Source: a virus
Taxonomy: Duplodnaviria > Caudoviricetes
Length of the DNA: 58,695 nt
Virus record (IMG/VR): IMGVR_UViG_3300034175_000127
Location: 1 to 58,695 of that record
Strand: one strand, 5' to 3'
The notes below the pieces were generated by a model. That model saw nothing but the letters and a program-made list of their open reading frames with translations, searched no databases and was not told the origin of the DNA. Made by a program: the position numbers and the translations under genes. Below, piece by piece: positions 22,565 through 37,954 of this stretch (the first letter of the stretch is position 1; the number at the start of each line of letters is the position of its first letter).

Positions 22565-22567
22565 GCT

Positions 22568-22885
22568 TCAGGATTTCTCGTTAGCGCAGTGGCCAAAAAA
22601 CACCTGTGATTCGCGCATTTCGCGGGCAATGGTGTTACTTTGTTCCTCAGCCATGTGCGTGTTGCGAATCAGTTGCGCCGTCCTTTCCAGCGTCGCCAAT
22701 ACGATAAATAAGTTGTCGCTCGCGTTCCATAGTGTGGAGCCGGGAATAAGCTGCATATTGTGGTCGAGAAGGCCACCGAGCATTTTCGTCTCCCCTAAGC
22801 GGTCTGGCCAGAGCACAACCGCGCCGATCTGATCTGGAGCGGTTGCAACGATGGCCGCGATTTGGTTCTTGATTTCTTCTTCCAT
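22568..22885 (-). CDS. Hypothetical protein
   Basis: ORF in the operon; ATG next to the upstream stop. Confidence 0.5.
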   Translation of the reverse strand: MEEEIKNQIAAIVATAPDQIGAVVLWPDRLGETKMLGGLLDHNMQLIPGSTLWNASDNLFIVLATLERTAQLIRNTHMAEEQSNTIAREMRESQVFFGHCANEKS

Positions 22886-22886
22886 A

Positions 22887-23021
22887 TCAAATCCAGTGGT
22901 CGGGGTTGTCGTCCCACATCGCAAACTCTTTGTTGCTGTGGGTCAGGCACATCAACAAAACCCCCAATACGATGGCAGTAATCACGACGGGCAGAAACAC
23001 CCAGTGCAAAAATGTTTTCAT
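22887..23021 (-). CDS. 44-aa single-TM protein (below the ORF-track cutoff)
   Basis: MKTFLHWVFLPVVITAIVLGVLLMCLTH...; fills the gap between flanking genes with start/stop coupling. Confidence 0.5.
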   Translation of the reverse strand: MKTFLHWVFLPVVITAIVLGVLLMCLTHSNKEFAMWDDNPDHWI

Positions 23022-23236
23022 GGTTGATCGGGGAAAAAAGCGGCTTCAAAAGTGGTGTTCAGTGACGCCACTTGTAAAACGAGGGCATGGAGAGCCAACA
23101 AAATTGCGGCATTGGATTGAACCAACGCAATCGTAGCGGGATCAGCCAGACCAGCGGCCTTTTGAGATTCCTGAGCCAATTTGGAGGATTCTTGCAGCTT
23201 TTCACCAATAGGTGTGGCTAGAGAAATTGTTTTCAT
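23018..23236 (-). CDS. Hypothetical protein
   Basis: ORF coupled to the downstream gene. Confidence 0.5.
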   Translation of the reverse strand: MKTISLATPIGEKLQESSKLAQESQKAAGLADPATIALVQSNAAILLALHALVLQVASLNTTFEAAFFPDQP

Positions 23237-23365
23237 GGTTTGTTTTCTCGCCAGTAGCGGCGATTTAAATAAAGCGTTTGGCGCTCGCGTATCTGGCCTT
23301 TGAGCCATGCGCGAGCGCCAAACATTTGAATGTTAGACCAGGCTCGTTCTATCTCTGCGAGCCAA

Positions 23366-23569
23366 TTAGCCTTTGGTGCCAACGGCGGCTTTGAAGGTGA
23401 CGATTTGTTTTCCGTCCTTTTCTTCAACGTTGATGCTGGCATTGGTAAGTTGGGGAAAATGCGAGGCGTGATGTTTTTTCACAGCTTCGTTGGTCATGGA
23501 CTTGTCCGGCAGTTCGAGGCGTTGTCCATTGAACATGAACACGCGGGGCAGGGTAGTTTTTTCGGCCAT
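23366..23569 (-). CDS. Ubiquitin-like protein, PRTRC system protein C
   Basis: 67 aa, RVFMFNG...LPD...FPQLTNA...FKAAVGTKG ending in a free Gly; ATG overlaps the ParB-like stop. Confidence 0.85.
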   Translation of the reverse strand: MAEKTTLPRVFMFNGQRLELPDKSMTNEAVKKHHASHFPQLTNASINVEEKDGKQIVTFKAAVGTKG

Positions 23570-25476
23570 CAGTCAGCTTCCTCCTCGGAATCATCTACAT
23601 CGGTGGGCACGGCGCGCCCTTCCAGTTCAGCGATCATGTTTTCGGGTTCGATTCCCGCGCCTTCACACGCCACGTGAAAGCGTCGATACAGCGCACAGAC
23701 AGTCGCTACATTCAAATCGTGTTCGTCCAACCAGTCTGCTTCAGCGCCTGGGATGGTCGCTGTCATATCGGGGCTGGAGCTTTCGATAGGCGGCGCGGGT
23801 TTGGGCGTAGCTTTCGGCGCCGGCTTGAGGTTCTGGCCTTCACTGCTGGCGGTCGCAAAGCCAACGCCCTGGCTTACTGGTGGCGTGCTGGCCACACCGC
23901 CAACGCCCGCTTTTTGCGCGGGCGATTCGTGCGCGCGGCTTTCAAGCTGTTTGTCGTTCTCGCTCTTTTCCGGTGCTTCGTTGGCAGCATCACCGGCGCC
24001 GTCTTGGGCTACTGGCGTAGCGGCGCTTGTCCGCATTTGTAGCACGAGGAATTCGCCCTGATCGGTTAGTTTGAAATGGTGGCGCCCGTCTTTTTCTTCA
24101 TCAGTCACAAAGCGCGGTTGCAGAGCTACAAGCATCGCCGCGACGTTCGCAGGGCTGACATCGATTTCTTCGGCACTGCGCGCGATAGTCGAATTAGGAT
24201 GAAAATCGAGAGTCTTGAGAATTCGCTTTTGCTCGAAGCTGAGTTCGATGGTGCCGCTGAGAGGTGCAGCCATTACAGAGGTTTCATTTTGACTGTTTGC
24301 GCGTGCCTTTTGATCTGCAAGCAATTCAGTGCCTCGCAACGACAAAAGCAAACTTTCGCCTTGATCGGTCAGCGCAAACGTATTGTCTTCAACAACAACT
24401 AACCCTCTGGAACCCAACTCCGCTACAATGAGGCTGACTTTACCTTCCGGAATCTGTGTTTCTTCGGAGATGCTGGCCACGTCTGAATCTTGGTCAGCAC
24501 CAATAGCAACTAACACCTTTGATTCAAGAACAAGGAGTTCTTCGTCGACACTTTGCGAAGCTGCTTCCAATTGTGTCTGGGCTGGCTCTGCTTTCGGGAT
24601 TTTGGGCAGCTTTTTGACGTTGAAATCGAGGTGAATTGTCTCGGTCATGCCATCCGGTAAAACAACCAGATATTTTGGATGGACTTCTTTGACGGTCCCG
24701 AAAATCTTCGCATCCGGTGCGAGCTTCGACTTCCATTCAATGCGATCATCTGACTCGAAGACCGAAACCAGCGGCGCGCCTTTGCGTTCAACGCCACCGG
24801 CTGGCTCTTCGATTAGCTTCGGTTGCTCGCCGGCGGATTTCGCTTTTTCGGCAGCGTCCAAGCTTTCACGGACGGGCGCAACTTCCGCATCAAGACGGCG
24901 TGATGACCACTGCTCATCAGCGCATCTCTGGCCCAAAACCTCAACGGCGGTTTTGTCTTCGATGATGCTGCACAGAGTTTTAGCGTGGGTTTCAGTAATT
25001 TGGCCGCGCGTGAGCAGATCCAGCACGCTTGCGGGCAAGGCCAACAATCGCATCCGGTTGGAGACGACGGGCGCTGAAACCTTGTATTCCTCGGCAACTT
25101 GAACATTCGTTTTCCCGAAATGCTCAATCAAGTTGCGATAGCCGATGGCGATTTCCACGACGTTGAAAGAAACGTGTTCCGTGTCAGATTTGAGGGCGAG
25201 CGTCGCCATTTGCAAATCCGAATAGTCGCCAACTTCGGCATCGCAAAACTCCCATTGGAGATGTCTGAAAGCACGCACACGGCGCTCGCCATTCAGAATC
25301 TGGTGGGTGCCATCGCCGTTTGGAGTGGGACGCGCCACGATTCTATGGAGCAATCCATCATTAGCGATGCTGTCGGCCAGGGAGTCGATGTCATCGAACA
25401 ACTGGCGGGGCTGAAAAGGGTTGGGCAGAATGTCTGCAACGCGCAACCGCACTATTTTGGTGGGTGTCTGGCTCAT
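23569..25476 (-). CDS. Large ParB/Spo0J-like protein with C-terminal winged-helix-like repeats
   Basis: PNPFQPRQLF, LADSI...GLLHRIVAR, NGERRVRA, VSNRMRLLALP; two ...LTDQGE wHTH-like units. Confidence 0.85.
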   Translation of the reverse strand: MSQTPTKIVRLRVADILPNPFQPRQLFDDIDSLADSIANDGLLHRIVARPTPNGDGTHQILNGERRVRAFRHLQWEFCDAEVGDYSDLQMATLALKSDTEHVSFNVVEIAIGYRNLIEHFGKTNVQVAEEYKVSAPVVSNRMRLLALPASVLDLLTRGQITETHAKTLCSIIEDKTAVEVLGQRCADEQWSSRRLDAEVAPVRESLDAAEKAKSAGEQPKLIEEPAGGVERKGAPLVSVFESDDRIEWKSKLAPDAKIFGTVKEVHPKYLVVLPDGMTETIHLDFNVKKLPKIPKAEPAQTQLEAASQSVDEELLVLESKVLVAIGADQDSDVASISEETQIPEGKVSLIVAELGSRGLVVVEDNTFALTDQGESLLLSLRGTELLADQKARANSQNETSVMAAPLSGTIELSFEQKRILKTLDFHPNSTIARSAEEIDVSPANVAAMLVALQPRFVTDEEKDGRHHFKLTDQGEFLVLQMRTSAATPVAQDGAGDAANEAPEKSENDKQLESRAHESPAQKAGVGGVASTPPVSQGVGFATASSEGQNLKPAPKATPKPAPPIESSSPDMTATIPGAEADWLDEHDLNVATVCALYRRFHVACEGAGIEPENMIAELEGRAVPTDVDDSEEEAD

Positions 25477-26789
25477 TCGGCCTCCTCGACTTCAGCGGCA
25501 GCGGTCGGGAGCGGCCCCCAGGAAAGAAGTTTGAAATTCACTTCGGTCATAACTTTGAACGCGAGCGCGGGCGTCAAATCGTTGAATGACTCGATACCAT
25601 CATGTCCATGCGCTTTGAGGAAGCGACTCACCACATCGATGCGTTCCGCGCGAAACTGGGCCGCCATGGAAAGTCCTTGCTGTTCACACGCAATAATCAG
25701 CTTTTGAACTGCACTTGAGATTCTGCGTTTGGGCGGCGTGGCCTCGCCTGCTGGCGCTGATTCGACTGGGGCCGGTTCGGAAGCGATTTCGGGTTCAAGG
25801 ACAACCTCTGCTTCAGGAATGGTCTCGGCATCGGTGGTCTCACCGTCAACCGGAGCGGTTTCGCTGACTTCACCCTCGGCCACATCGTCTTCTGTGGCTT
25901 CTTCCACGCCTTCATCCATCGCTTCGGCGTAGTCTTTTGTCCGCTCAGCTAAAACGCGTTCGACTTCGGCGCGCATTTCAGGCCGGACAGCTGCGCCACC
26001 ATCCCAACGCTTGATGCATCCTTCGAGAAACTCGGTAGGGCAATCAGCTGGAGTGCGACCTGCACATGCACCTTTTTTAAACGTCAGGGAATTTTCAGTA
26101 GATGCAGTGGCCGTAGATGGAGCTGGGGACGTTTTGGGAGTCGTCACTTTTTGGCGACCAGACGGTGGCTCAGGTGCCGAAGCGACAACAGCGTTACCAG
26201 CCACATCGGTTTCAGTTTCTAACTCGTCAGGTGTGTAATAAGTTTGGCTAAAGACATCTGGGGCAAATCGTCTCATGCCCCGTGAAATGACGCGAGCGAA
26301 GAGCATATCGCTAGGTGTCCGTTGCCAATTGGCTTTGGGTTTTCCATAACCGTTGCTGGTCAGGCCCGCTGCTGTTGCCTCTTCTATTGTCATTCCAAGT
26401 GTTCCGACGCTTTGACCTTCCTCGAAAAATTCAAGTTGGCAATCAAAGTCATTGGAAACAATGATTCTGAAGTCGTATTTCTTCGACTTTTTGATAGCAG
26501 CGGCCATGATGCCCGCGCCGATGGATGGTTTGCCTTCAATGACATGAATGCCTGTCATTGAGGCTATCGGACTTATGCCGATTTCTTGGCCGAAAAGCAC
26601 TTTGACGATAGCCTGTGATTCACTTTTTGCGTCTGAAAAATAGCCACTTTTGGCCAAATGAGAGGCTAAAGTAATAATGTCCAAGCCGGGATACAGCGGT
26701 TGTATAGAAGGCTGGCCTAACTGTGGCATGACGAGCATATCGCCAGCGGATACACGGGCCAATTGTTGATTCTGGCTCATATTATTCAA
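25473..26789 (-). CDS. RecT-like single-strand annealing recombinase
   Basis: VKVLFGQEIGISP...GIHVIEGKP, NWQRTPSDMLFAR...FAPDV; adjacent to the exonuclease. Confidence 0.8.
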   Translation of the reverse strand: MNNMSQNQQLARVSAGDMLVMPQLGQPSIQPLYPGLDIITLASHLAKSGYFSDAKSESQAIVKVLFGQEIGISPIASMTGIHVIEGKPSIGAGIMAAAIKKSKKYDFRIIVSNDFDCQLEFFEEGQSVGTLGMTIEEATAAGLTSNGYGKPKANWQRTPSDMLFARVISRGMRRFAPDVFSQTYYTPDELETETDVAGNAVVASAPEPPSGRQKVTTPKTSPAPSTATASTENSLTFKKGACAGRTPADCPTEFLEGCIKRWDGGAAVRPEMRAEVERVLAERTKDYAEAMDEGVEEATEDDVAEGEVSETAPVDGETTDAETIPEAEVVLEPEIASEPAPVESAPAGEATPPKRRISSAVQKLIIACEQQGLSMAAQFRAERIDVVSRFLKAHGHDGIESFNDLTPALAFKVMTEVNFKLLSWGPLPTAAAEVEEAE

Positions 26790-27945
26790 GTTCCTCCAGG
26801 GGTTTTACGAGAGCGAGGCTTTGCGATACGGATAAGGTGACTGCGCCGACTGCACGCAAATCTTCCATCATCGCATTGGCGGCAGCGGTTTTTTCGCCTC
26901 TTGGCGCCGCACTTTTCACTGTTTCGAGCAACCTCGTTTTGTTGATGTCGCACACGGCAAACATCTGATCTTCTGAAAGTTGGGTCTGCATTACCTTTGC
27001 GGATTCTGGTGTAAGCGCAATGGTTTCGCGGTTCATCGGGCGCAGGTCGAGCACTTTGCCTGTGTCAGTGAGAATTGGGCCGCCACCAAAAACGAATTGC
27101 TTTATGGCCATCTTCACATCTTCCACGCGTTTGCCCAGTGCTTGGGCTACGAAATACAATTCGGCAGCATTGTCGGGCGTGATTTCAAACGATTCACCGC
27201 TTTCCTTTGCCATGACAAATAGGCCAGCCTGATTGTGAAGTTGGGGGCACCTCGAAACGGGACAGTAGTGACACTGCTCGCCAATGCGTAGTACACCTCT
27301 GAGCGCTTCACTTCCGGCGATCACCAAGGTTTCTTGCCAAGCCTGAAGCTGGTCGAGTGTGAATGTCTCGCTGTCTATAACTCCTTCGCGAAGCCAAAGT
27401 ATGGAAACAATCACTCGGTCTATCGCGGCTTCTGAGGTAGAAGCAAAACGTTCATACGCCAACATCGCGTAGGTTTTAAGCTGTGCGCCGTAGTCGCCTT
27501 CACGCCAGCCTGATTTCCAGTCGCCAACGCGGATCGAGCCATCGCCCGGCAGCGATATTATGTCCGCGTGCCCCGTGATTTCTAGGTCGATTGCTGTGCC
27601 GTCGCCGACAGGAACATCTAAAACGGTGCAAAGTTCGACTTCCGCCTCAGGTTCTGGAAAAAATTGTTGGCATTTCTGCCAGAGGTTCGATGCTGCCCAG
27701 CTGAGCTTGATTAGTTCGGTCTTATCAACATCGTGAGCAGCGGCCACGACATCCACACTGGCGGGCATCCCGTATATTATGCGCTCGCAGCAATCGTGAA
27801 CTGCGGTTCCCAAACGGGCTGGGGCGGACGTGGATTCAAAGGTGGGAAGCATCATTGAACCCGGACATTTGGTGACACGCGGCGTTGAACTGGCACGCAA
27901 TGTCAGGTGCGGTGGTGAAAAAATTTGGTGTGGTTGGAGCGGCAT
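26782..27945 (-). CDS. PD-(D/E)XK Cas4/RecB-like exonuclease
   Basis: CPGS, GTAVH, GHAD, DWKSG, QLKTYA, CHYCP. Confidence 0.85.
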   Translation of the reverse strand: MPLQPHQIFSPPHLTLRASSTPRVTKCPGSMMLPTFESTSAPARLGTAVHDCCERIIYGMPASVDVVAAAHDVDKTELIKLSWAASNLWQKCQQFFPEPEAEVELCTVLDVPVGDGTAIDLEITGHADIISLPGDGSIRVGDWKSGWREGDYGAQLKTYAMLAYERFASTSEAAIDRVIVSILWLREGVIDSETFTLDQLQAWQETLVIAGSEALRGVLRIGEQCHYCPVSRCPQLHNQAGLFVMAKESGESFEITPDNAAELYFVAQALGKRVEDVKMAIKQFVFGGGPILTDTGKVLDLRPMNRETIALTPESAKVMQTQLSEDQMFAVCDINKTRLLETVKSAAPRGEKTAAANAMMEDLRAVGAVTLSVSQSLALVKPLEELE

Positions 27946-27951
27946 AAGTCC

Positions 27952-28380
27952 TCAGTTTTTTGACAAAACTACTTTGTCTAGAGGGCTTTTTGGCACCTGG
28001 TTGTAATACCGTTGGTGCAGTCTGGTTAGTTCGTTTTGGACAATGGAAAGCTGATTCTGAGCTTCAATGCGAAGGGTGTCAGCTTGCACAATTCCGGTTG
28101 CTAATTGGTGATTCAATCCGAGAAGTTCATTAGTTGATTTGTTGGCTTCCGCAATGCAGCGGTCTTTATCTTTCAATTCCGCCTTTTGCTTACGAATGTC
28201 GGCACACAAGTCCGTGATTTTCTCGGTCAATCTATCGTTGTCTTCGCACTTGTCGAGGATGATTTCTTCCTGCTGATGCACTTTGCAAAGCAGGTAATAC
28301 GCCATACAGCCAAGTGCGGACGCTATTATGAGGGTGAGGATCTGATAGATCATCTTGTCAAAACTCTCCTTGGCAGCCAA
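27952..28380 (-). CDS. Membrane-anchored coiled-coil protein
   Basis: N-terminal TM followed by a heptad-rich region; start uncertain. Confidence 0.55.
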   Translation of the reverse strand: MAAKESFDKMIYQILTLIIASALGCMAYYLLCKVHQQEEIILDKCEDNDRLTEKITDLCADIRKQKAELKDKDRCIAEANKSTNELLGLNHQLATGIVQADTLRIEAQNQLSIVQNELTRLHQRYYNQVPKSPLDKVVLSKN

Positions 28381-28398
28381 GGCCGCCGGTTGTTGTGG

Positions 28399-28614
28399 TT
28401 ATTGACGCGGAATCATTCTGATTTGCAGGTCGCAGGCTGGTAAATTGCCGCCGTGCTCTGCTTTGAGCAGCTTGATTTGGCTTTCTAAGTCGCGTCCGAT
28501 GCGTTCCAGCAAAGCCGTGGTTGCGAGTCGTTTGCCCTCTATGCTCTGGGCTGCGTCGACTATCGCGGTTTTTAGGCTTTCGTCGATGTTTGCTGCCACA
28601 ATTTCTCTTCCCAT
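28399..28614 (-). CDS. First gene of the leftward operon (Cro position), hypothetical
   Basis: GGGAGG RBS; divergent from the repressor-like gene. Confidence 0.6.
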   Translation of the reverse strand: MGREIVAANIDESLKTAIVDAAQSIEGKRLATTALLERIGRDLESQIKLLKAEHGGNLPACDLQIRMIPRQ

Positions 28615-28633
28615 TTTCCCTCCCGTGTAGGTT

Positions 28634-28785
28634 TATAATCAGTCAAGAAAAATAATTGATTGATTAATTGTGTCAAATCATACGCCCGTAATTGATTATC
28701 GTCAAGTGCTTCTTGACTGATTTTCGACTTTTTTTTCTTAATTGATTATGCTTTGTGGAAATCAATTGAATAATTGATTGATTCT
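28634..28785. promoter_or_regulatory. Immunity/control region: leftward promoter and clustered operator-like motifs
   Basis: Minus-strand TTGACG(28700-28705)-17-TATGAT(28677-28682); TATAATCAGTCAAG at 28634, CTTGACTGATT at 28712, and four TAATTGATT motifs. Confidence 0.75.
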
Positions 28786-28829
28786 CACAGGGAAAAACGC
28801 GATGAATTATGAAAAAGGGGGAAAAACTG

Positions 28830-29561
28830 ATGGCCAGAGTCACATACACCTGCAAAGTCTGCGGCCATCAGTGGCACCCGCGTAAAGCGGCATTGCCAGA
28901 GGTTTGCCCAAACCGCAAATGCCACTCGGCCTATTGGCAAGAAGGGCCACAACGCGCCTCGCGCGCTGAATCGCTCGCCAAAGCGAAGGCTAAACGTGAA
29001 TTGGAGCAAAGCGTTCTGGCAAAACGAGTCCCTGTCTCGCAGAAAGTGCGCGAAGCGACCTACTACAAATTAGGTCTTATGCACCCCAAAGATGACGGTT
29101 TAATCACCATTGGCAAGACCAACGCGAACGAGTGGTATGACGCAGGCACCGAGCCGGAAGAGGAATATCCGAAAGCGGGAATGCTCGACTTGCTCTCGTT
29201 CAATAAAGAAACCGACGTCATGTTCGTGGTCAACGAACAGGAGAATTCGGGCATCTGTTTGACCGGAGATGGTATTTACCCCGGCGACATTATCCATTTC
29301 CGGAAGGGCATCCAACCCAATAACGGTGACATCGTGCTGGCAGAAGGCTTCGATATCGAGGGGCACTGGTTTGTTACTGCCAAGCACTATCATGTGCGTG
29401 GTCTGCGCTGGAACGGCCTTCCGATCGTGGAGCTCCGGCCCTCAAACCCACGGTGCAAAGTCATCCGCGTTTTTCCACAAAACATTCTGGAAATTAGCGT
29501 CGAAATCTCTCGGACACACCGCAATATCCACAAGCGCAACAGCAGAGGACGGAATAAATGA
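28830..29561 (+). CDS. Repressor-like protein: N-terminal Zn ribbon + LexA/S24 peptidase-like domain
   Basis: CKVCGHQW...CPNRKCHS; GICL...GIYPGD...NGDIVLA...TAKHY...LRPSNP; divergent from the early operon. Confidence 0.75.
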   Translation: MARVTYTCKVCGHQWHPRKAALPEVCPNRKCHSAYWQEGPQRASRAESLAKAKAKRELEQSVLAKRVPVSQKVREATYYKLGLMHPKDDGLITIGKTNANEWYDAGTEPEEEYPKAGMLDLLSFNKETDVMFVVNEQENSGICLTGDGIYPGDIIHFRKGIQPNNGDIVLAEGFDIEGHWFVTAKHYHVRGLRWNGLPIVELRPSNPRCKVIRVFPQNILEISVEISRTHRNIHKRNSRGRNK

Positions 29562-29890
29562 ACAACAAGTTAAAGATTTTCTTGGTCGGCTCACTGATTT
29601 TTGCAAGCGGTTTTGCTGTGGCTCAAACACCAGCCGCGCGCAGTTGGGCAACCACGGTCGCAACGGCGGCCTTTAGTGGCGAAAAGGGCGATGACGAAAA
29701 GTTAGCCAGGGCGTATCAAAGCGCTGCTGGCAATGCGGACCTCACAAAGATGGCGGCGCAACTCGCCTTTAGTTGGGAAGAAAACGCGAAGCCAACTGAA
29801 ACCAGTCTGGCTGTCTTGCAGGTCATGCAAAACCAAAAAATCATTGAGCAAAACGCTCAAATTATCAAGTTGCTTTCCCGCAAGAAATAA
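29558..29890 (+). CDS. Secreted/periplasmic protein with signal peptide (superinfection-exclusion candidate)
   Basis: MNNKLKIFLVGSLIFASGFAVA signal-like N-terminus; co-oriented and overlapping with the repressor gene. Confidence 0.55.
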   Translation: MNNKLKIFLVGSLIFASGFAVAQTPAARSWATTVATAAFSGEKGDDEKLARAYQSAAGNADLTKMAAQLAFSWEENAKPTETSLAVLQVMQNQKIIEQNAQIIKLLSRKK

Positions 29891-29891
29891 G

Positions 29892-30482
29892 ATGATCATC
29901 ACCATTTACTCAGGCAAAGGCGGCGTCGGCAAATCAACGACAACAGCCACACTCGCCCACATCTGGCGCGCGAAAAATCCGATTGTTATCGACATGGACG
30001 AACAAAAAGCAACTGCCGTGTTTGCGGAGTCGCTTGCAGGTATCAGTCGCCACGATGTCGAATCATCAGACTTTTCGCAATTCGTAGCGATCCTTGACCC
30101 GCGCCAACTCGTAATCATCGACTCGCCGCCATTGTGGTCCTTTGCCAGCGAAGCCATTCGCATAGCTGACCTCGTTGTTATCCCTTGCGTCACCGAGCTT
30201 TTACCCTTTCGCGCTACGCTTGCGACTCGCACGAACGTAGGAGGAAAAGGGCGCATTTTGCTCACTCGCTACAACTCATTCGACGCTGAAGCGAACGAAG
30301 TCCGCGCGGAGGTTAATTCGGAGCTCATGGGGAGCGTTTTTAAGAGCGTCATACCAGGCAGCCGCGCCGTGCGCGCCGCAACATTGTTGGGCCAGTGCGT
30401 CACCGAATTTGAGCCAGAAAGTAAAGCGGCAATCGCTTACTTTTCATTGGCCGAAGAAATTGAAGATTATTTGAAGTTTTAA
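29892..30482 (+). CDS. parA: ParA partition ATPase
   Basis: KGGVGKST deviant Walker A, IDMDEQ, IIDSPP. Confidence 0.92.
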   Translation: MIITIYSGKGGVGKSTTTATLAHIWRAKNPIVIDMDEQKATAVFAESLAGISRHDVESSDFSQFVAILDPRQLVIIDSPPLWSFASEAIRIADLVVIPCVTELLPFRATLATRTNVGGKGRILLTRYNSFDAEANEVRAEVNSELMGSVFKSVIPGSRAVRAATLLGQCVTEFEPESKAAIAYFSLAEEIEDYLKF

Positions 30483-30494
30483 GAGGAGCATCCA

Positions 30495-31583
30495 ATGGCT
30501 GGAGTTTTAGACCGAGCAAAAAACTCGCTCGAAGGCGTGAAAATCGCGCCCAAATCGGGCGAGATTATCTACGATAACAACGTGGGAAAAGTCAGCATCG
30601 ACGCTGTTTTTCCGATGGGGCAAGACAAATGGGGCACGATGGACACGGTTTCGCGTTCACAGCCTCGCCAGAATTTCAATGAGAAAGAAATGGCGAGTCT
30701 GGCCGAGAGTCTTAGAGAACATGGCCAGCAACAGCCTATCGTGGTGCGAAGAGCGCCCCACGTTCGCGGCGCAGATCGAGTCGCCGAATATGGCATTATC
30801 AACGGCGAGCGCCGTTGGCGGGCACTCAAAAGAATCGGCGCTACGGAAATTCTTGTGCGTGTCGTGAAAGCGGACACCCGTAGCGCTTATCGTCTGGCTG
30901 TTATCAACGATATCCACAATGTCAGCCACAACTCGCTGGAGCGAGGGCAATCGCTGATTGAATGCGAAGAGGATATGCGCGAGGAATTAACAGAGTTTTT
31001 GGCCAAGCATCTGCCGCTGGCTCTGGAACAGCCACTTTCGCAGGCTGGATATGAACGGCTGCAAAAAGTCGAGCACCTCACGCCGTTGTGGATGCGAAAG
31101 GTGTTTGAGCGTGCACTTAAAACGAAACGGCAGCCAAAGGTTATTGATGAAGATGTTGCAGCGACCGTGGGTATCACCACGAAGCGCATGCAGGATCTAA
31201 CGAAACTCACAACGCTCGAGACAGAATTCAAAACCGCACTGGAAGAAGATCAAATCAACACGCGCCACGCAGGCGCACTTTTGCGGTTACCAGACAAGAA
31301 AGCTCGCAAGAAGCTCTATAAAATGATTTTGGATGATGGCTTATCAGGTGTCGATGCCGAGCAACGCGCCAAGGATATGCTTGAGCCGATTCAGAAAATC
31401 GGCGGGACTTGGAAAATCAAAGCCGCTGATCCGATGGTTCCGATGCGCGCTGCACTTTCCAGTGTGGAAGAGGCGGCCAAGGTTCTGCGCGAAACGGATG
31501 CACCAGAAAACCGCGATGAGCTGCGGCAAATGAGCGCGCAAATGCTCGAACTTCTGGCCGAAATCGAAAGCCGTTTAGCCTGA
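30495..31583 (+). CDS. parB: ParB partition protein
   Basis: QPRQNF, LAESLREHGQQQPIVVR, NGERRWRA; directly downstream of parA. Confidence 0.92.
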   Translation: MAGVLDRAKNSLEGVKIAPKSGEIIYDNNVGKVSIDAVFPMGQDKWGTMDTVSRSQPRQNFNEKEMASLAESLREHGQQQPIVVRRAPHVRGADRVAEYGIINGERRWRALKRIGATEILVRVVKADTRSAYRLAVINDIHNVSHNSLERGQSLIECEEDMREELTEFLAKHLPLALEQPLSQAGYERLQKVEHLTPLWMRKVFERALKTKRQPKVIDEDVAATVGITTKRMQDLTKLTTLETEFKTALEEDQINTRHAGALLRLPDKKARKKLYKMILDDGLSGVDAEQRAKDMLEPIQKIGGTWKIKAADPMVPMRAALSSVEEAAKVLRETDAPENRDELRQMSAQMLELLAEIESRLA

Positions 31584-32765
31584 TTCCAACTGCTTTTGAT
31601 AGAGGTCAGCGTGTTGTTGAGCTACGATTTCCCACAACACAAGCGCCATTGGGGAGTCGGGGCGTTCTAACCTGTCCCAAAACACAGGTTCGACTTCGGC
31701 GCGCGCTAATTGGCGCAAACGCTCTTGTTCGGCCTCTGGCAGTGATTCCCAGACCGCAAAGGCTTCGCGAGGATAGATTGCGTCGTCAGGTTGCGAAGGC
31801 TTCAAAACAGGCGGTTTTGGCGCTTTAGCAACCTGTTTTGAAGTCGCGGGCGTGTCGGTAGGTGGAGCGTCAATGCGTAAGGCAACATCTCCAAACTTAA
31901 AAATCGCGATTTCACCGTCATTTCCCTTGCGGTAATCGACACTTGAGAGATAGCCACGCGAGATCAATTCTTCAATGCCAGAGACCAATTTCTCGCGGAT
32001 TTTGGACGGATAAGCGTAAGGTGCCATTCCCAGCCGGTCGCGTAGTTTCATCACACCGATTTCAAACTCACGGCGCGGTGGCTTGTGAGCATTACGCATC
32101 ATGTCCAGAAAACGAAACAGGCGGCGCGCGGTAGGAATATCCAGCGAGAGCATGAAATCCAAAGCAAGTGAGCGAACATTGCCCGCTAAAAACGACTCGT
32201 GCAGCGTTTCACTCCAACGAAACCACGAAAGGGGCAGTGTATTTTGGCCTTTGCGCCCAGGTGGCTCCGCAACAATACCAAAGGCTTCGAGCAAACCAAA
32301 TGAAACAGCTTCGTAAGTGGCTTTAGCTCGGGCGTTCCAAAATGAGTGGCGTGCACTTATTGTCACGCTGGCGAGTCGTTTAAAACAGTCTTCCAGCGTG
32401 CGATAGGTGCGCGCATCATGGCTCCAACCCATGCGTTTGAGCACATCGAAGCGCGAAAAAGGCACGAGACGCGGCCATTCACCATGGCGCGCGATTTCGC
32501 GTGTCAGCTGCAAAAGCACCAAATAAAGCAATTCTTCATTGGGCCCAGGCAAGCCTAATTCTGTGTGGCCATTGACTTCCCACGAGGCTTTCACGATTTT
32601 GCCGTTGGGGAGTTGGCGATCATATTCGTATTGAATCAGTGATTGCCCCGCTCGTGATGCCGCTTGCAAAAGCGCGAAGGGGTTTCCTGCGAGATTCATT
32701 TCATCGCGTCCCGAATGTTCTTCTCCGATTAAAACCAATGTGCTTTGCGACTTTGAGTGGAGCAT
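31575..32765 (-). CDS. repA: Plasmid replication initiator (RPA/RepA-type)
   Basis: DEMNLAGNPFAL, GLPGPNEE, ARRLFRFLD motifs; iteron array directly upstream. The ORF-track extension to 33134 reads through the iterons. Confidence 0.8.
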   Translation of the reverse strand: MLHSKSQSTLVLIGEEHSGRDEMNLAGNPFALLQAASRAGQSLIQYEYDRQLPNGKIVKASWEVNGHTELGLPGPNEELLYLVLLQLTREIARHGEWPRLVPFSRFDVLKRMGWSHDARTYRTLEDCFKRLASVTISARHSFWNARAKATYEAVSFGLLEAFGIVAEPPGRKGQNTLPLSWFRWSETLHESFLAGNVRSLALDFMLSLDIPTARRLFRFLDMMRNAHKPPRREFEIGVMKLRDRLGMAPYAYPSKIREKLVSGIEELISRGYLSSVDYRKGNDGEIAIFKFGDVALRIDAPPTDTPATSKQVAKAPKPPVLKPSQPDDAIYPREAFAVWESLPEAEQERLRQLARAEVEPVFWDRLERPDSPMALVLWEIVAQQHADLYQKQLESG

Positions 32766-32862
32766 GATTTTGGATTTTAAATTTAAAAATGTCTCTTTTC
32801 TTTTTCTTTCTAAAGAATACATTCTTTCTAAGGCTTTCCCCTTGGCATTTTGAGCGTGCTTT

Positions 32863-33078
32863 CTTCCCCCAAATACCGCGTTTCCTTCCTCTACATACCG
32901 CGTTTTGGTGGCTTTTTTCTTCCCCCAGATACCGCGTTTCCTTCCCCTGCATACCGCTTTTCCCCAAAAAGACTTCCCCCAGATACCGCGTTTCCATGTT
33001 CTAAACGCGGTATCTGGGGGAAATCCACGCTCAAACAGACTCCCTCCTTTTAAAAGAAACGCGGTATCTGGGGGAAGA
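32863..33078. repeat. Iteron array / plasmid origin
   Basis: Seven copies of TTCCCCCAGATACCGCGTTT-like units: five direct (about 32863, 32886, 32919, 32941, 32973; two degenerate) and two inverted (33003, 33056). AT-rich tract at about 32770-32830. Confidence 0.9.
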
Positions 33079-33087
33079 AATAGCCTC

Positions 33088-33558
33088 TCAGGGTGTTTTT
33101 TCTTTGCGTGGTCGTCCCCGTCCCCTCTTTTCACCCTGTGGCTTGGTTAGGTCGGTGCCGGTTTTAATCCGCGGGTATTGTTTGCGAGGTGCTGGATCAA
33201 AGCGTCGGCCGCCATTGTGGACTTCTTCGAGTGCTTCACAATAATTCCGGATTGCTGCATCGAAAAATGAGGTTTGGTCGAGAAAAAGCGGCGACCCACT
33301 CAGCGCAGCAACACAATTATCAATGCGCTGTGCGTTGTCTATGCTGACGTAGATGTTCTTCTGGCCGAGCGTTTCAGGTGGCGCGCCCGCCTTGACGAGC
33401 GAGCCAATAGCCTGCGAAGTGACGGTGCGTGACCGCCTGGGACGCACTTGACCTAACTTTTTGCGCTCGCGATGACGCTCCAGCACATCTTTGTCGTATT
33501 GGCGACGCTGTTCAGGCGTCATATTTTTGAGTGGGATTGGAAGTCGTTTAATTGGCAT
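33088..33558 (-). CDS. Ribbon-helix-helix/ParB_C-like DNA-binding protein with C-terminal AT-hook
   Basis: QTSFFDAAIRNYCEALEEVHNGGRRF; KRGRGRPRK; starts next to the recombinase stop. Confidence 0.55.
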   Translation of the reverse strand: MPIKRLPIPLKNMTPEQRRQYDKDVLERHRERKKLGQVRPRRSRTVTSQAIGSLVKAGAPPETLGQKNIYVSIDNAQRIDNCVAALSGSPLFLDQTSFFDAAIRNYCEALEEVHNGGRRFDPAPRKQYPRIKTGTDLTKPQGEKRGRGRPRKEKTP

Positions 33559-33559
33559 T

Positions 33560-34546
33560 TTAAATTCCCAGCGGCAAGTGCATCAAATCAACGGCTTTCT
33601 GTTTGTGCACCTCGCCGCGCATATCGTATTTTTGTGTTGTTGAGATTGATTCATGACCCATCAGAGCTTGAATCATCGGAGCATCGGCACCCGCTTCAAA
33701 CAAATGAGTTGCGAAGCTGCGGCGCATATCATGTGGCGAAAAGGCTTTGACGCCAGCCCGCTCGCGGCAACGTTCGAGCGATGTCAAAACCGTCTGGTCG
33801 TTGAGGCGACGCATCTCGATTTTGCCACCTTTGGGAGTTGGCAAAAACAGCGGCCCGGCATCCTCACCACGAAGCGCAATCCAAGATTCCACCATCGGAC
33901 GCACAAAAGCACTGGTCTGCACCAAACGCTCTTTGTTGCCTTTGCCACTGCGAACCCGAATCGTGCCAGTCTCACGGTCATAGTCCGCCAGATCGAGCGC
34001 CACAACTTCAGAGCGGCGCAGGCCTGCGCCATAAGCGACGATGAGCAGGGCACGATCACGAACGCCGCACGCAGTTGCAGGACAGGCTTTAATCATCGCG
34101 ACCAGCTCACCTTTCGTGAGACTGCGACCGCTCGGCAAAACCGTGCCCTTCACGCTTTTCACGTTCTTGGCGCGCATATAATCGTCGGTGTCTATCTGCT
34201 CCAGATTCCAGGCAGCTTCAAGCACTCCGCGCAGAGCGCACAACATTTTGTTGGCTGTATTTGGCTTGTGACGTCGCGCTAACTCAGATTTAAGCGCAGT
34301 CGTAAGACCCACACGAAGACCAGCCCAGTTGAAATCCATCGCGCCACAACGACCACCCGAAAGCATGAGCGCCATCGTTTCGAGTGCTGCGCCCATTGTG
34401 CGCCGACTAGAATCAGCGGAGAGGCTGGCCAGATAAAGCAAAACGGGATTCTGGTCGGCGCTCCGAGCCGGTGCCCAAATTTGAAAAGATGCTGGCAGCG
34501 ACAGCTGTGACTCGGTGGACGAAGCGGAAACGATGGACGTGCTCAT
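33560..34546 (-). CDS. Tyrosine recombinase (XerC/Cre-like resolvase)
   Basis: GLRRSEV, GKGNKER, HDMRRS, GHESISTTQKY: full R-K-H-R-H-Y catalytic set. Confidence 0.95.
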   Translation of the reverse strand: MSTSIVSASSTESQLSLPASFQIWAPARSADQNPVLLYLASLSADSSRRTMGAALETMALMLSGGRCGAMDFNWAGLRVGLTTALKSELARRHKPNTANKMLCALRGVLEAAWNLEQIDTDDYMRAKNVKSVKGTVLPSGRSLTKGELVAMIKACPATACGVRDRALLIVAYGAGLRRSEVVALDLADYDRETGTIRVRSGKGNKERLVQTSAFVRPMVESWIALRGEDAGPLFLPTPKGGKIEMRRLNDQTVLTSLERCRERAGVKAFSPHDMRRSFATHLFEAGADAPMIQALMGHESISTTQKYDMRGEVHKQKAVDLMHLPLGI

Positions 34547-34553
34547 GACAATC

Positions 34554-34582
34554 ATTATATGCCTGTAATTGAAATAATGCAA
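34554..34582 (-). promoter_or_regulatory. Sigma70 promoter of the recombinase (leaderless)
   Basis: TTGCAT-17-TATAAT, with ATG 7 nt after the -10 box. Confidence 0.75.
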
Positions 34583-34597
34583 GTATTATTTCATTTT
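34567..34597. repeat. 12-6-12 inverted-arm site, copy A (27 bp identical to 40579-40605)
   Basis: AATTGAAATAAT-GCAAGT-ATTATTTCATTT; 11 of 12 arm positions pair. Confidence 0.85.
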
Positions 34598-35400
34598 TGG
34601 CGAATCATAAGCGGGTTAACGTGCCCGGAGTCGAGATTGATAAAGGCGCCGTGTCTGTCGATTGGACCACGAAACAAACGCCAAAGCAGGTCGAGCGCGA
34701 AAGTCACAACGGTTTGGTTAATGAAGAGATCTTGCTTCTCAAGCGCTTCGGCCAGTGAGCAAGAAGGCGTGTCATCTTCAGGTAGGGCCTCATCGAGGAG
34801 CTCAGGGAAAATATCGAACAAGTGAGGAAGGCGTGGCATCAGTTCCTCTTTGACACTGTGATTTGTCCCACTCTTCAAAGCACGCTTTGAGACTGGGACT
34901 AAACGCTTTTGGGCTTGGAGTTCGCCTAAAATTACTTGGCCGTCACGCGAACGATTTCCCATGTCGAGCCAGTATTTAGAAAGGTAGTTATTCTCCATGC
35001 CCTTGAATATCTCACGCCGTGAAGCTGCTGTATCTGTGCAGGTAATCAAGATGTTGCATGAGTTTCGTCCCTGGAATTTCTCTGGGCGCGCTGTCCAATT
35101 AAGCCCATAAAAGCAGTTCAGGCGATGGATCAGCACAGTAGCTTTGTTCTGGCCGATATCGGAAGGGCTAAAGAGTTGGCGACCGACGTTACTTTCGCTC
35201 ACACGGTCAAAGTCATACGCCGTCACATCGAGACCACTCGGATGACCAATAGCCCGTAAACCACGGTCAATGCGAGCTAACCCAGTCAACATCTGTGAAC
35301 CATTGCCACCACAGCCAATAACAAAAACCGAAATGGATTGGGTCAGCATTGAGGACGCAATTGTATGCGTCTCATTATTAGGGTCAATCGGTTTCGTCAT
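34591..35400 (-). CDS. PRTRC system ThiF/E1-like protein
   Basis: GCGGNGS, DFDRVSESNVGRQ, CTD, WLDMGN..GQVILG, PSCSLAEALEKQDLFIN. Confidence 0.92.
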   Translation of the reverse strand: MTKPIDPNNETHTIASSMLTQSISVFVIGCGGNGSQMLTGLARIDRGLRAIGHPSGLDVTAYDFDRVSESNVGRQLFSPSDIGQNKATVLIHRLNCFYGLNWTARPEKFQGRNSCNILITCTDTAASRREIFKGMENNYLSKYWLDMGNRSRDGQVILGELQAQKRLVPVSKRALKSGTNHSVKEELMPRLPHLFDIFPELLDEALPEDDTPSCSLAEALEKQDLFINQTVVTFALDLLWRLFRGPIDRHGAFINLDSGHVNPLMIRQK

Positions 35401-36151
35401 GATTTAAGATGTCCTCCACTGTGACAGGGCTTTCTGCGCCTTGAATTGGTTCTAAGTAGGACCAGGGAAACCTTTCGGCCCCGACCATTTCCCGCCAGAG
35501 CGCATCATGGCTCGAATAATTGAGAAATTTGATCCGGTAATTGGAGTGCGTGTAATGGGTGTCGAAAAATGCGCGTTCCCACTGAGGAATACCACTCGTC
35601 GCCAAATTGTCTGGATAGGGTGCGTTGCCTCGGCACATCGCGCCAGTCGCGTAAAGGTTGAAATAAGGAGCGTAATAGATTGGTGTATCATTTCGAGGAC
35701 GCTCAGAATTTGCTAACGCGAAAACATAAAGGCGCCCTGGTCTTGCCAAAAACAAAAGTGATGGATGACAAACGATCTTGCCGCTCATTTCTTTATTGAA
35801 TTTTGAATTCGAAGTGCTGAAGTAAATTGGGCGTCTTTCCGAGGGAACAAACCACGCCAGCAACCCACCATCACTGCAAAGAACATGATCGGGCGAGACG
35901 GTTCGACGACTGGGTGTAGCTTCCAGTGTGCGAACCAAATTTTCCAGTGCCGGGCGGCTCAATAACTCACCGGCAGTGAGTGCCATTTTTTCCCCGTCAT
36001 TATGAACGCCGTGGACTGTAGCCAGGGCGGTATTGCTTCCTTCATAAATCAGCAGGGCGCGGTTGCATTTCAGCTGTTCGCCCTTAGGCAGAAAGCCCCG
36101 AACGGGCATCAACTCTGGCTCCGTCCTTGTCTGTGTGCGGATGAGTGTCAT
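35384..36151 (-). CDS. PRTRC system protein B (prokaryotic E2 family D)
   Basis: ATVH, WFVPSERR, LYVFAL...RP, APYFNLYATGAMCRGN, WERAFF..HYTH. Confidence 0.88.
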   Translation of the reverse strand: MTLIRTQTRTEPELMPVRGFLPKGEQLKCNRALLIYEGSNTALATVHGVHNDGEKMALTAGELLSRPALENLVRTLEATPSRRTVSPDHVLCSDGGLLAWFVPSERRPIYFSTSNSKFNKEMSGKIVCHPSLLFLARPGRLYVFALANSERPRNDTPIYYAPYFNLYATGAMCRGNAPYPDNLATSGIPQWERAFFDTHYTHSNYRIKFLNYSSHDALWREMVGAERFPWSYLEPIQGAESPVTVEDILNHDETD

Positions 36152-37461
36152 ATTAAAGTCCTAAATTCTTGGTCATCATCTTCGTTCAATATTTCCATGA
36201 GCGTGGCTTTCGCTTTAAAGGGATCGTTTTCAACGGGATCTGGCCACAATTGCGCCCACCGTTCCCGCGCCGCGACGGAAGGTCGATATTTTTTCCCGAT
36301 GTTCTTTTCCGTATTGATTGCGGTCAGAATCGAGTCGGCAAGGCGAATAAGCCGCGCGCTGCGCCTGAGCCTGTCTATGGCGCTACTGACAGAAGCTGGA
36401 TCTTCGGTGTGGAAAAGGAACGCCATGCAGCTCTCGCAGAAATCCCCCGCTTGCCATGCGTTTTCTGCGTTGTCATCGTAAACCTGAAAAGTGCAGTCGG
36501 TAGATTGCCATGCGACGAGCACAGGTATTACGAAAAAATCCCATTCGCCCAGCTCGGCAAGTTGGCTAAGTTGGTCGGGCCGTTCATTGCCCGTCGGGAG
36601 CAGAGATTTGATTTCAAGTGCTGATGTAAGTGCTTGGTGTTCCCAAGAGACAGGATCGACCTTCTGAAGCGCGCGGCGGACTGCTTTTTCATTCCAGACC
36701 GGATTTATCGCTTTTGCCGGAGCATTCTTTTCAAGTTCCAAGAGAGAGGGATTATAAAACTGGCATTTTTCGCCAGTTTCTTCCGCCTGGGCTATCTCTT
36801 CCATCAAACACTGCTCATACCAATCGCTTCCATCTAGATATTCGTGGGCATCAGTTGTTGACCATCGACCAACAGTAACCCCGAGCGCGTTTAGCAAGCT
36901 GTGAAGAGTTGCATAGCCTGCGCCTCGAGCGCGTTTTTCTAGTTGAGTGATGCACTCACTCACAATGCAGCGAATCGCGCGGCGACGCGCGGTTAGCTCT
37001 ATCATGATCGCGCCTTGGGCCCAGTCATTCTTCGCAGAGTCGGAATAATCGAAATTGAGATGAATCGTGTGCAAATCATGTATATGCAGGTCATCGCGTA
37101 CGAAACGTTCGAGCCCGCTTTGAAGTGTTTCACCGAATGAACCGCGCCAATCGTTATCGATCAAGACACCTTCACGATGAAGGGCGGCACAGATCGAGCG
37201 GGCGCTGTGGTCGGTGGCGATTTTATAACCAGTTGGAATTGTCGAGGGAATCGCGGGAATGCTAAGCGTGTTCAAGGGAGAATCGGCAATTGGTGCCAGG
37301 CGGGGCGCAGTGGCTCGCCGCGATTTTTCGCCAGAGCGTCCGACACTTGCATCGCGAGTCGTTCCGCGTCGGGGTTGCTTTGAAATTGTTCCGCGATGAG
37401 TAGTGCTTCGCCTGTCTTTGGTTTGTCTTGCAGGGCTTGGGTTAAGGTTTTGGGTTCGCAT
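36148..37461 (-). CDS. PRTRC system protein F-like
   Basis: Position upstream of proteins B and ThiF; LSIPAIPSTIP N-terminal motif; start uncertain. Confidence 0.65.
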   Translation of the reverse strand: MRTQNLNPSPARQTKDRRSTTHRGTISKQPRRGTTRDASVGRSGEKSRRATAPRLAPIADSPLNTLSIPAIPSTIPTGYKIATDHSARSICAALHREGVLIDNDWRGSFGETLQSGLERFVRDDLHIHDLHTIHLNFDYSDSAKNDWAQGAIMIELTARRRAIRCIVSECITQLEKRARGAGYATLHSLLNALGVTVGRWSTTDAHEYLDGSDWYEQCLMEEIAQAEETGEKCQFYNPSLLELEKNAPAKAINPVWNEKAVRRALQKVDPVSWEHQALTSALEIKSLLPTGNERPDQLSQLAELGEWDFFVIPVLVAWQSTDCTFQVYDDNAENAWQAGDFCESCMAFLFHTEDPASVSSAIDRLRRSARLIRLADSILTAINTEKNIGKKYRPSVAARERWAQLWPDPVENDPFKAKATLMEILNEDDDQEFRTLI

Positions 37462-37954
37462 GGTGTTTTCATGGGTTATCGCGTAACTGCAACCAAAATT
37501 AGCTTGCAATTTTTGGTTTCGCATATTGAATTGATTGTGAGTTTGGGAGTTGGTAGGTTGGCGGCAAGGAGTCAAAACGAGTGCTTTAAATCCCTTCTGC
37601 CATTTCCTGCTTCGCTGAGTGCGTTTGATGTGAAAGCTGAAAGTGAATGGTTAACGGCAAGGAGTTGAAACGAGCGCGATTTTCAGGGAGTTGAAAGGTC
37701 TTTTCCACATAAGCACGCGGGCAACTCTTTCCGTCGCTGCAATGCTACTTCCGCGCAGCGTAGGAAACGGGGCGCCGCGACTTTTGGGGCAGACTCGGCA
37801 AACGGCAAGGCCCAAAAATGGCGCGGCTCCGAGCGAACAACATTTGGGAGCCGCAAAATAGCGGGGCGCGATTTTCGCGCGAAATTGCGGTTTCGCCTTA
37901 TGCGCCCGCCGTCAGACTCAACGCGCGGGCGCCTCGGTATATGTGGTTGAGTTT

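Follow-up and report, generated by a model that had tools for sequence, protein, structure and literature searches.

Gene Content of the Divided PRTRC Locus

We analyzed the IMG/VR virus record IMGVR_UViG_3300034175_000127 over its full length of 58,695 bp (hereafter, the window), which represents a phage of about 59 kb from a biological soil crust and carries genes of the PRTRC system (ParB-Related, ThiF-Related Cassette; NCBIfam TIGR03734–03742), corresponding to operon type 6d in passages of Iyer, Burroughs and Aravind (2006; PMC1779556). A previous reading of the same DNA, made from the letters alone (the sequence-only reading), had described a ubiquitin-like protein (Ubl) of the PRTRC-C type that ends in GTKG and is coupled to a large ParB-like gene within a RecT/exonuclease operon, together with an E1 with a PSC cysteine, an E2 of the D type with an AMCRG cysteine, and a protein F situated about 11 kb away. 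Profile searches agree with these assignments, with the Ubl, the E1 and the E2 scoring above the cut-offs of their families and protein F below its own. The five genes are as follows:

23366..23569, minus strand: Ubl, PRTRC protein C (Prok_Ub), 67 amino acids (aa); TIGR03738, 52.8 bits (cut-off 45.95); PF14454, 62.9 bits (cut-off 25)
23569..25476, minus strand: ParB-like protein, 635 aa; parB_part, 105.4 bits; ParB_N domain with GERRVRA, ParB helix-turn-helix, two TrmB-like winged helices and an acidic tail
34591..35400, minus strand: PRTRC ThiF-family E1, 269 aa, with a single ThiF domain; TIGR03736, 300 bits (cut-off 144.75); GxGGxG at residues 29–34 and PSCS with Cys214
35384..36151, minus strand: PRTRC protein B, E2-like (Prok-E2_D), 255 aa; TIGR03737, 155.7 bits (cut-off 131.45); PF14460, 113.1 bits; AMCRG with Cys173, and His202
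36148..37575, minus strand: divergent PRTRC protein F (alpha-hel2), with a likely start at the ATG at 37461 (437 aa)

Of the columns invariant in 34 sequences, the E1 retains all 41, among them G29, G31, G32, G34, R74, Q75, D123 and P212-S213-C214-S215, and the E2 keeps the conserved C.G motif (Cys173) and His202 in a comparison with 118 distinct protein B relatives. Likewise, the Ubl keeps the eight columns invariant in 24 sequences (R9, F11, L18, P21, V30, G64, K66, and G67), and its C-terminus reads AAVGTKG followed by the stop, with no extension past GTKG. The ATG of the Ubl gene overlaps the TGA of the 635-aa ParB-like gene (TGATG) and has a GAGGAGG Shine-Dalgarno sequence upstream, the Ubl being the final gene of the exonuclease/RecT operon.

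Several comparisons suggest that the window's protein F is a true, if divergent, member of its family. A HMMER pass over 1.84 billion representatives retrieved 50 proteins at E <= 0.001, the window's own included, and 45 of these 50 aligned members (the window's and 49 relatives) match TIGR03742; moreover, a jackhmmer search started from the protein at the F position of the Pelobacter propionicus plasmid pPRO1 recruits it with an E value of 1.2e-30, and its gene lies directly upstream of B, as in relatives. A word-indexed protein search with protein F returned only itself. The AlphaFold model of this protein has a predicted local distance difference test value (pLDDT) of 76.9 and a predicted template modeling score of 0.70, with a core above 90.

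A structure model of the E1 dimer with the Ubl, a kind of check already proposed in the sequence-only reading, obtained a score of 0.82, the highest-scoring of its three controls reaching 0.00; between runs, at least 95% of contacts are shared, and the partner has a pLDDT of 85 or higher. The score mark used is reached by 116 of 157 solved complexes and by 2 of 215 mismatched pairs. As modeled, Ubl residues 61–67 would lie against E1 residues 31–34, 121–125, and 147–150, with the tail in the adenylation site. Because ThiF/MoeB-type complexes have already been solved, this result shows likeness to them rather than binding of the pair.

Absence of JAB Peptidase and Protein E Genes

Six-frame searches of the whole record with hidden Markov models gave no match at E <= 10 for TIGR03735 (protein A), PF14464 (Prok-JAB), PF01398 (JAB/MPN), or PF04002 (RadC), nor for TIGR03741 (protein E) or TIGR03739 (protein D). 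TIGR03735 was also silent in the control genomes, as it was over 23 viral records with E1 relatives, so that its blank alone carries no weight. The JAMM expression HxHx(6-12)[ST]xxD matched nothing in window frames of at least 80 aa, and a protein E profile of our own, built from 89 N-termini, gave a best E value of 0.75 in the window. As far as sequence methods can see, this genome does lack both a JAB peptidase and protein E, as noticed previously.

The record is classed by CheckV as linear and 64% complete. However, its 3′ end (57959–58693, plus strand) matches positions 17–144 of the tape-measure family phrog_13339 and its 5′ end (3–5093, plus strand) matches positions 197–451 of the same family, and two further tape-measure families show the same end pattern. 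The unseen gap between the record ends probably amounts to some 50–170 codons within the tape-measure gene, and the record would probably be a circularly permuted, near-whole genome broken in a repetitive gene. Since both ends lie inside one tape-measure gene, the missing third is not a likely cause of the gene absences.

Among the 23 viral records, Prok-JAB (PF14464) was above its cut-off in none and gave four weak matches below it, three of them in 154-aa open frames. In one viral locus (L007), a gene for a 148-aa RadC-like JAB protein (2859–3305) precedes a protease-less PRTRC cassette by about 4 kb, and weak matches in 154-aa frames at corresponding places of two others (L008 and L009) suggest a RadC-like JAB there too; the matches in L007–L009 are the only weak ones in open frames among these records.

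Three genes upstream of F, the window encodes an ArdC-N-like protein (38422–39297, minus strand) with an intact HEIAH zincin motif, of the kind of ArdC-like anti-restriction metallopeptidases, preceded by a DnaN-like gene and a strong hairpin (39325–39356). We considered this protein as a substitute peptidase and set the idea aside as speculation, the relatives showing no conserved link between such a gene and PRTRC.

Gene Order and Ubl Termini Among PRTRC Relatives

The window was compared with 185 loci containing E1 relatives (23 from IMG/VR, 80 from genomes, 80 from metagenomes, phage Dina, and plasmid pPRO1), a sample that is biased because the three collection scans were made with peptide patterns of the window's E1. 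The best identity among the E1 relatives was 56%, on a contig of 2.8 kb, and 416 plasmid records hold an E1 relative.

Gene order was evaluated in loci with at least 3 kb upstream of E1, which comprised 140 relatives (141 loci with the window). A canonical layout, with the Ubl gene 1.5–3.0 kb upstream of E1 on the same strand and the order E-C-F-B-ThiF, occurs in 133 of the 140, in agreement with the earlier statement that PRTRC cassettes are normally contiguous. The remaining seven are disrupted copies, none of them with two intact halves in different operons: for instance, the 10 kb upstream of E2-E1 hold no Ubl in L131 and L138 (a scan of L131 showed an IS1595 transposase and an outer-membrane gene in this stretch), and L047, L050, and L178 contain E1 stubs (in L047, the scanned one, chromosomal cytochrome c552 genes, nrfA, adjoin the stub). 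A metagenome-assembled genome (MAG) of Geobacterales (L026, 8290–9035) has lost C along with the 5′ portion of F, which leaves ParB-E-B-ThiF, and in a metagenome cassette (L139, 4087–5553) a group II intron separates C from B.

In the window, the start of the Ubl gene lies 11.0 kb from the stop of E1, and 11.8 kb separate the ThiF start from that of C, which is downstream on the same strand. The resulting order, F-B-ThiF ... ParB-C, corresponds to the usual ParB-E-C-F-B-(A)-ThiF after circular permutation: an F-B-ThiF head unit runs on into a tyrosine recombinase gene, and a ParA/ParB pair plus a 250-aa gene are found on the opposite strand between the halves. This permuted, two-operon layout is new among the 141 evaluable loci and constitutes a variation of gene order within a known family.

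Neither the phage location nor the missing JAB is new; what stands out is solely the position of the tag gene, 11 kb away from the enzyme genes and in another operon. The sequence-only reading therefore held in part: the parts, the absences, the layout, and the mature Ubl end stand, while the claims of novelty for a phage-borne and for a JAB-less set do not. Phage-borne PRTRC genes are annotated in RefSeq (phage Dina) and, in passages of a recent article, published from a Burkholderia prophage (PMC13366799); 182 of the 185 loci fetched in our biased sample lack protein A, a relative of which occurs in the other three, and in short contigs the term A-less means only that there is no A between B and ThiF. 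In sum, no JAB gene was found in the window, its split layout is uncommon, and the JAB-less form is common.

The 138 Ubls from A-less loci, the window's included, end in GTKG (95), GVKG (41), GEKG (1), or GTKA (1), so that 137 of them terminate in KG, whereas the two from A-plus loci are of 126 and 129 aa, with about 60 extra residues after G[RT]KG. These termini fit the earlier proposal that the Ubl needs no maturation, and the comparison yields a usable rule, namely that JAB-less cassettes encode Ubls ending exactly at the reactive glycine. The Ubl of pPRO1 ends in GTKA, not in glycine.

An E1 tree with 35 rows placed the window in a nine-row clade (support 99/95) with pPRO1, the Geobacterales MAG, four short metagenome contigs, Ralstonia phage Dina, and Burkholderia phage BgVeeders33, as the weakly supported sister (83/55) of the latter two phages. 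The large A-less E1 clade is of the Bacteroidota type and comprises 24 of the 35 rows. Given that pPRO1, Dina, and BgVeeders33, all from the window's clade, are A-plus, loss of JAB in this clade is less routine than the raw count suggests. We found no adjacent homologs of the window's integrase, ArdC-like protein, RecT, exonuclease, or RepA beside the PRTRC genes of the 185 loci.

Transcriptional Context of the Two Halves

The features that surround the Ubl gene, and those upstream of F, are the following:

23276..23323, minus strand: terminator-like hairpin (inverted repeat I15) with a 17-bp GC-rich stem, directly 3′ of the Ubl stop, then U-rich GCUUUAUUU
25473..26789, minus strand: RecT-like single-strand annealing protein; phrog_561, 9.3e-19; phrog_4171, 7.9e-17; a weak Pfam RecT match (19.3 bits) below cut-off
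26782..27945, minus strand: PD-(D/E)XK exonuclease (DUF2800); PF10926, 61.7 bits; PF12705, 47.7 bits; phrog_69 exonuclease, 2.1e-25
27952..28614, minus strand: two small open reading frames (ORFs) that open the leftward operon, of 142 aa (membrane-like N-terminus, coiled coil) and 71 aa, taken from the ORF list
28649..28705, minus strand: two overlapping sigma-70-like promoter matches (10/12 each) from a consensus scan
28809..29561, plus strand: 250-aa candidate repressor with a zinc-ribbon N-terminus and a LexA/S24-like C-terminus, from an Atlas structure lead
37556..37584 and 37649..37677, minus strand: two copies of a 26–29-nt direct repeat (D2), 93 nt apart, candidate regulatory sites upstream of F

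We read the exonuclease, RecT, ParB, and Ubl genes as what looks like one operon ending with the Ubl. The hairpin after the Ubl stop has a predicted folding energy of -37.5 kcal/mol (z -5.1), and none of 200 shuffles folds as well; it does not appear in the consensus terminator scan because its loop exceeds 8 nt. The two small ORFs match no family above threshold. As for the other half, about 270–490 nt upstream of F look non-coding, and D2 has two matches in the window against 0.00 expected. Beside the D2 repeats, a 91-aa arginine-rich ORF (37683–37958) looks non-genuine. The sigma-70-like matches, the hairpin, and the non-coding stretch make separate transcription units for the two halves plausible, as the sequence-only reading had supposed.

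The 250-aa gene is divergent from the Ubl operon and lies upstream of parA-parB. It has no Pfam match, and all the Atlas structure rows for its product are Peptidase_S24 clusters, with template modeling (TM) scores of 0.35–0.41 by query and a feature score of 0.81. The protein has GDG in its sequence; LexA-type peptidases have GDSM. We consider it a candidate non-cleavable repressor. If it is indeed a repressor, exonuclease-RecT-ParB-Ubl would be an early lytic or induction operon, and the Ubl would be gated separately from F-B-ThiF.

The Carrier as a Phage-Plasmid

The remaining features that bear on the nature of the carrier replicon are these:

29733..30482, plus strand: ParA ATPase; ParA_partition, 69.8 bits; phrog_164 and phrog_4715 for the ParA/ParB pair
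30495..31583, plus strand: second ParB, 362 aa, partition partner of ParA; parB_part, 83.6 bits
31575..33134, minus strand: RepA, a replication initiator of the RPA family; PF10134, 40.3 bits
32838..33080, both orientations: iteron array, putative plasmid origin; direct repeats D1 and D8, inverted repeats I1, I3, I5, I6, and I9
33560..34582, minus strand: tyrosine recombinase, XerC/D-like; PF00589, 127.4 bits; phrog_1 integrase; recomb_XerC, 131.9 bits (below cut-off)
Late arm, plus strand: sigma factor, Mu-like portal, weak major-head match, tail tube, tape measure, and tail proteins

The minus-strand arm, of about 30 kb, is made up of replication, recombination, and plasmid genes and contains the PRTRC parts named above. 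The tyrosine recombinase gene begins 8 bp past the E1 stop and is followed by a 156-aa ORF, the iteron array, and RepA. At least seven iterons of about 20 nt, with the unit TTCCCCCAGATACCGCGTTT, either immediately precede RepA or fall within its 5′ end as annotated. In a tblastn search, 77 plasmid records matched RepA, annotated as replication initiator protein A or TrfA and mostly from Thermus, Deinococcus, Rubrobacter, and Planctomycetota; RepA would thus belong to the RPA/TrfA plasmid initiator group, its true start probably lying downstream of the iterons. The second ParB scores 49.5 bits against the PRTRC-type ParB model (TIGR03734, cut-off 278.6). The combination of phage structural genes with RepA, iterons, and ParA/ParB on one replicon points, from its sequence, to a phage-plasmid.

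Other genes of this phage are of separate interest. A 339-aa protein with PAS and response-regulator receiver domains (12350–13369, minus strand), an unusual signaling protein for a phage, is encoded at the edge of the early arm. Two paralogs (19552–20151 and 20955–21545, both on the minus strand) share an N-terminal domain of about 100 aa that matches the same nine PHROG families of unknown function, and a Toprim primase-like gene (20155–20973) sits between them.

Interpretation of the Divided Layout

From the observed identity, intactness, and layout of the genes, and from the lack of JAB and protein E, we favor the view that the window holds an intact, reduced, and rearranged PRTRC Ubl-conjugation system (type 6d) on a phage-plasmid of about 59 kb, to which we give a probability of roughly two in three. 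The 67-aa Ubl would be made with its C-terminal reactive glycine (GTKG) already exposed, so that, as proposed, no peptidase would be needed. The ThiF-type E1 would adenylate Gly67 and take the Ubl as a thioester on Cys214, the E2-like protein B would take it over on Cys173, and the Ubl would then be passed to lysines of target proteins, with protein F probably serving as an adaptor or accessory enzyme. Supply of the Ubl and supply of the enzymes would most likely be controlled separately. The gene order might have arisen through opening of a circular PRTRC replicon at a point between C and F as it joined the phage or, equivalently, by duplication followed by reciprocal loss.

A number of observations weigh against this interpretation. 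At the level of the proteins, the Ubl departs from its family at D20 and P49, positions conserved in at least 90% of 24 sequences, and the E2 does so at Y200, where at least 95% of the 118 relatives share another residue. Protein F stays below the cut-offs of both TIGR03742 (29.8–30.1 bits against 58.4) and PF14456 (16.8 bits against 25), and its model matches no solved fold (best Foldseek E value against the PDB, 0.47; best wide VIA-align hit, Z 3.8, with a root-mean-square deviation of 3.3 over 79 aligned residues), although this lack of a match demonstrates neither that the fold is new nor that a peptidase is absent. Additionally, the 635-aa ParB is not of the PRTRC type, since it reaches 43.9 bits with TIGR03734 against a cut-off of 278.6, over profile positions 7–196 of 555 only; its pairing with the Ubl may then be secondary rather than ancestral.

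As to regulation and origin, the promoters are consensus matches near background (16 sites in the region against 11.7 expected), and the repressor call is based on an Atlas lead with a TM score below 0.5 by query. The proposed origin of the gene order lacks direct support: we found neither flanking repeats nor gene remnants, the two edges of the 14-kb interval yielded no att-like repeats, and the best scores for a remnant of C (Ubl) or E upstream of F were negative. No close relative of the phage that could show stability of the layout was found, and the record leaves a short part of the tape-measure gene uncovered. Finally, the literature searched contains no PRTRC experiment, its available passages stating that the function was not studied.

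A 23-nt att candidate with an 83% match (23013/37464) coincides with similar start-codon contexts and was judged to be due to chance.

Further comparisons of the 635-aa ParB gave little. A pairwise alignment with the pPRO1 ParB has an E value of 0.068, in the N-terminal domain; no relatives were detected in the viral or metagenome contigs searched; a search of 5.8 billion proteins, in which the 8000 candidates sharing most words were scored, retrieved only the query itself; and jackhmmer from a PRTRC ParB produced five rows, too few for a profile.

The divided cassette could instead be a decaying remnant, with halves that no longer cooperate and one or both heading to loss. This would be in keeping with the fact that all seven non-canonical layouts among the 140 evaluable relatives are disruptions (a deletion, truncations on the side of IS1595, E1 stubs, and a group II intron), that the Ubl is just 6.9 bits above its cut-off and deviates at two well-conserved positions, and that protein F falls below its own. 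Conversely, the four reading frames are whole and retain their catalytic and invariant residues, the Ubl is translationally coupled and has a good ribosome-binding site, the E1-Ubl model passes with the controls at 0.00, and the same sequence is present with at least 99% identity in three metagenome runs; we consider decay unlikely on balance.

A more ambitious variant of the favored interpretation takes the permuted layout as wiring instead of accident, with the enzymes kept among plasmid-maintenance genes, the Ubl under the repressor, and a one-time, irreversible tagging at ParB-clamped DNA. If so, the Ubl would be made solely once the phage-plasmid has come out of quiescence, and tagging would fire once, at induction or entry, from a pre-loaded set of enzymes; it would be irreversible for want of a phage-encoded peptidase, and its targets would be found at replicating or recombining DNA near the co-translated ParB-like clamp. 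We entertain this as a speculative scenario and deem it improbable in such a specific form.

Alternatively, the Ubl and E1 might form a sulfur-carrier pair (with a ThiS/MoaD-like thiocarboxylate), or adenylate something else, with no protein tagging. The E1 is indeed a single-domain ThiF-family adenylyltransferase with weak matches to ThiF and MoeB models, and passages of Iyer et al. (2006; PMC1779556) admit that C-terminal-glycine beta-grasp proteins may undergo thiolation. Nevertheless, an E2-like protein with conserved Cys and His always adjoins the E1 (171 jackhmmer matches, 185 loci), family scans of the window detected no sulfur-transfer or cofactor genes nearby, and, in the passages available on them, conjugation to proteins is described for the related operons 6C (Bil) and 6E (Bub), all of which leaves the sulfur-carrier alternative with very low credibility.

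With respect to the integrity of the record, Logan contigs of three biocrust metagenome runs (X1–X3) tile positions 22000–40000 with identities of at least 99%. Run X1, from which the record itself may come, contributes contigs of 8135 nt (24149–32283) and 15282 nt (32977–40000 and beyond), with overlapping short pieces between them; pieces from X2 and X3 with at least 99% identity occupy 30 of 30 and 29 of 30 bins, respectively, and a 1403-nt contig of X3 bridges 22573–23975, that is, the Ubl gene and its flanks. Loose ends or joints among the Logan contigs fall at 26861/32431, 32060/32662, and 34597. At position 24176, inside the 635-aa ParB-like gene, the window has C and the contigs of all three runs have A. 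The four runs listed as holding the sequence include no RNA run. In two runs, a contig agrees with the window as far as 34597, precisely where recombinase and E1 meet, with unrelated sequence beyond; this break might mark a mosaic boundary or reflect a short match due to chance. That the split is an artefact of a chimeric or mis-joined metagenome contig is hardly tenable: the record is a metagenome assembly classed as linear, no single listed Logan contig spans 22000–40000, and there are loose-ended partial matches at 26841, 32025–32735, and 34597, but the X1 contigs with their short pieces cover the interval, X2 and X3 repeat it, the X3 contig crosses the Ubl, and several of the loose-end records are partial matches of 33–36 nt with three mismatches.

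PRTRC systems were predicted in 2006 and are widespread on plasmids, integrative and conjugative elements, and phages, and the copy in the window leaves the view of the system unchanged. What it offers, on the interpretation of an intact but rearranged system, is a natural dissection, with modifier and enzymes in different operons, and a minimal set of four genes, C, F, B, and ThiF, in which the Ubl is ready-made and there is no peptidase, protein E, or PRTRC-type ParB. If the Ubl operon were under a lysis-lysogeny switch, this would give a hint as to when PRTRC acts.

Comparison with Known Systems

Plasmid pPRO1 shares with the window the C, B, ThiF, and F families (its E1 is 48% identical), a ParB-type gene before the Ubl, and a mobile replicon as carrier. 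However, in pPRO1 the genes ParB-E-C-F-B-ThiF form a single block, protein A (JAB) follows two genes after ThiF (L186, 1595–2209), behind a UvrD helicase gene, and its C lies about 2.1 kb upstream of ThiF, whereas the window's C is 11.8 kb downstream and protein A, protein E, and a PRTRC-type ParB are missing.

The closest carriers in kind are Ralstonia phage Dina (NC_055026), Burkholderia phage BgVeeders33, and, in the passages available on it, the Burkholderia gladioli prophage AB2 (PMC13366799), which are likewise tailed phages with PRTRC among early or replication genes. Dina has a contiguous E-C-F-B-A-ThiF cassette (RefSeq), with a DUF2016+JAB protein A and a 129-aa Ubl with a C-terminal extension, while in BgVeeders33 B and ThiF are separated by a 268-aa gene, and the position of C is taken by a gene of 129 aa; the window differs from both in the lack of A, the mature length of its Ubl, and the split. 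For prophage AB2, the article states, in its available passages, that the function of the PRTRC cassette was not studied (PMC13366799, 2026), and, according to excerpts of a 2026 preprint, a Phocaeicola prophage has a mutational hotspot in its PRTRC protein B.

The JAB-less E-C-F-B-ThiF cassettes of Bacteroidota elements and IMG/VR contigs also lack A, encode Ubls of 69–73 aa ending in GTKG or GVKG, and have the B stop overlapping the ThiF start. They differ from the window in belonging to a separate E1 clade, with E1 proteins 40–47% identical to the window's, and in keeping protein E and the contiguous order.

Outside PRTRC, the window's proteins do not show the architectures of Bil, Bub, or CBASS-Cap2 (tandem-domain BilD, E2-E1 fusions, DUF6527), and the sole related match was a weak, partial one of the E1 to 6A-MBL cap2_3 (27.7 bits against a cut-off of 320). 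According to excerpts of the Bub preprint, Type II Bub operons typically have no JAB peptidase, and families other than 6C and 6E are still uncharacterized. To judge from the portions of these reports at hand, Bil (6C), Bub (6E), and CBASS Cap2/Cap3 resemble the proposed scheme in adenylation by an E1, intermediates on Cys (or Ser/Tyr), and transfer to targets; they differ from it in their E2 families, and Bil and Bub are host antiphage systems, in contrast to the kit in the window, which is borne by a phage-plasmid.

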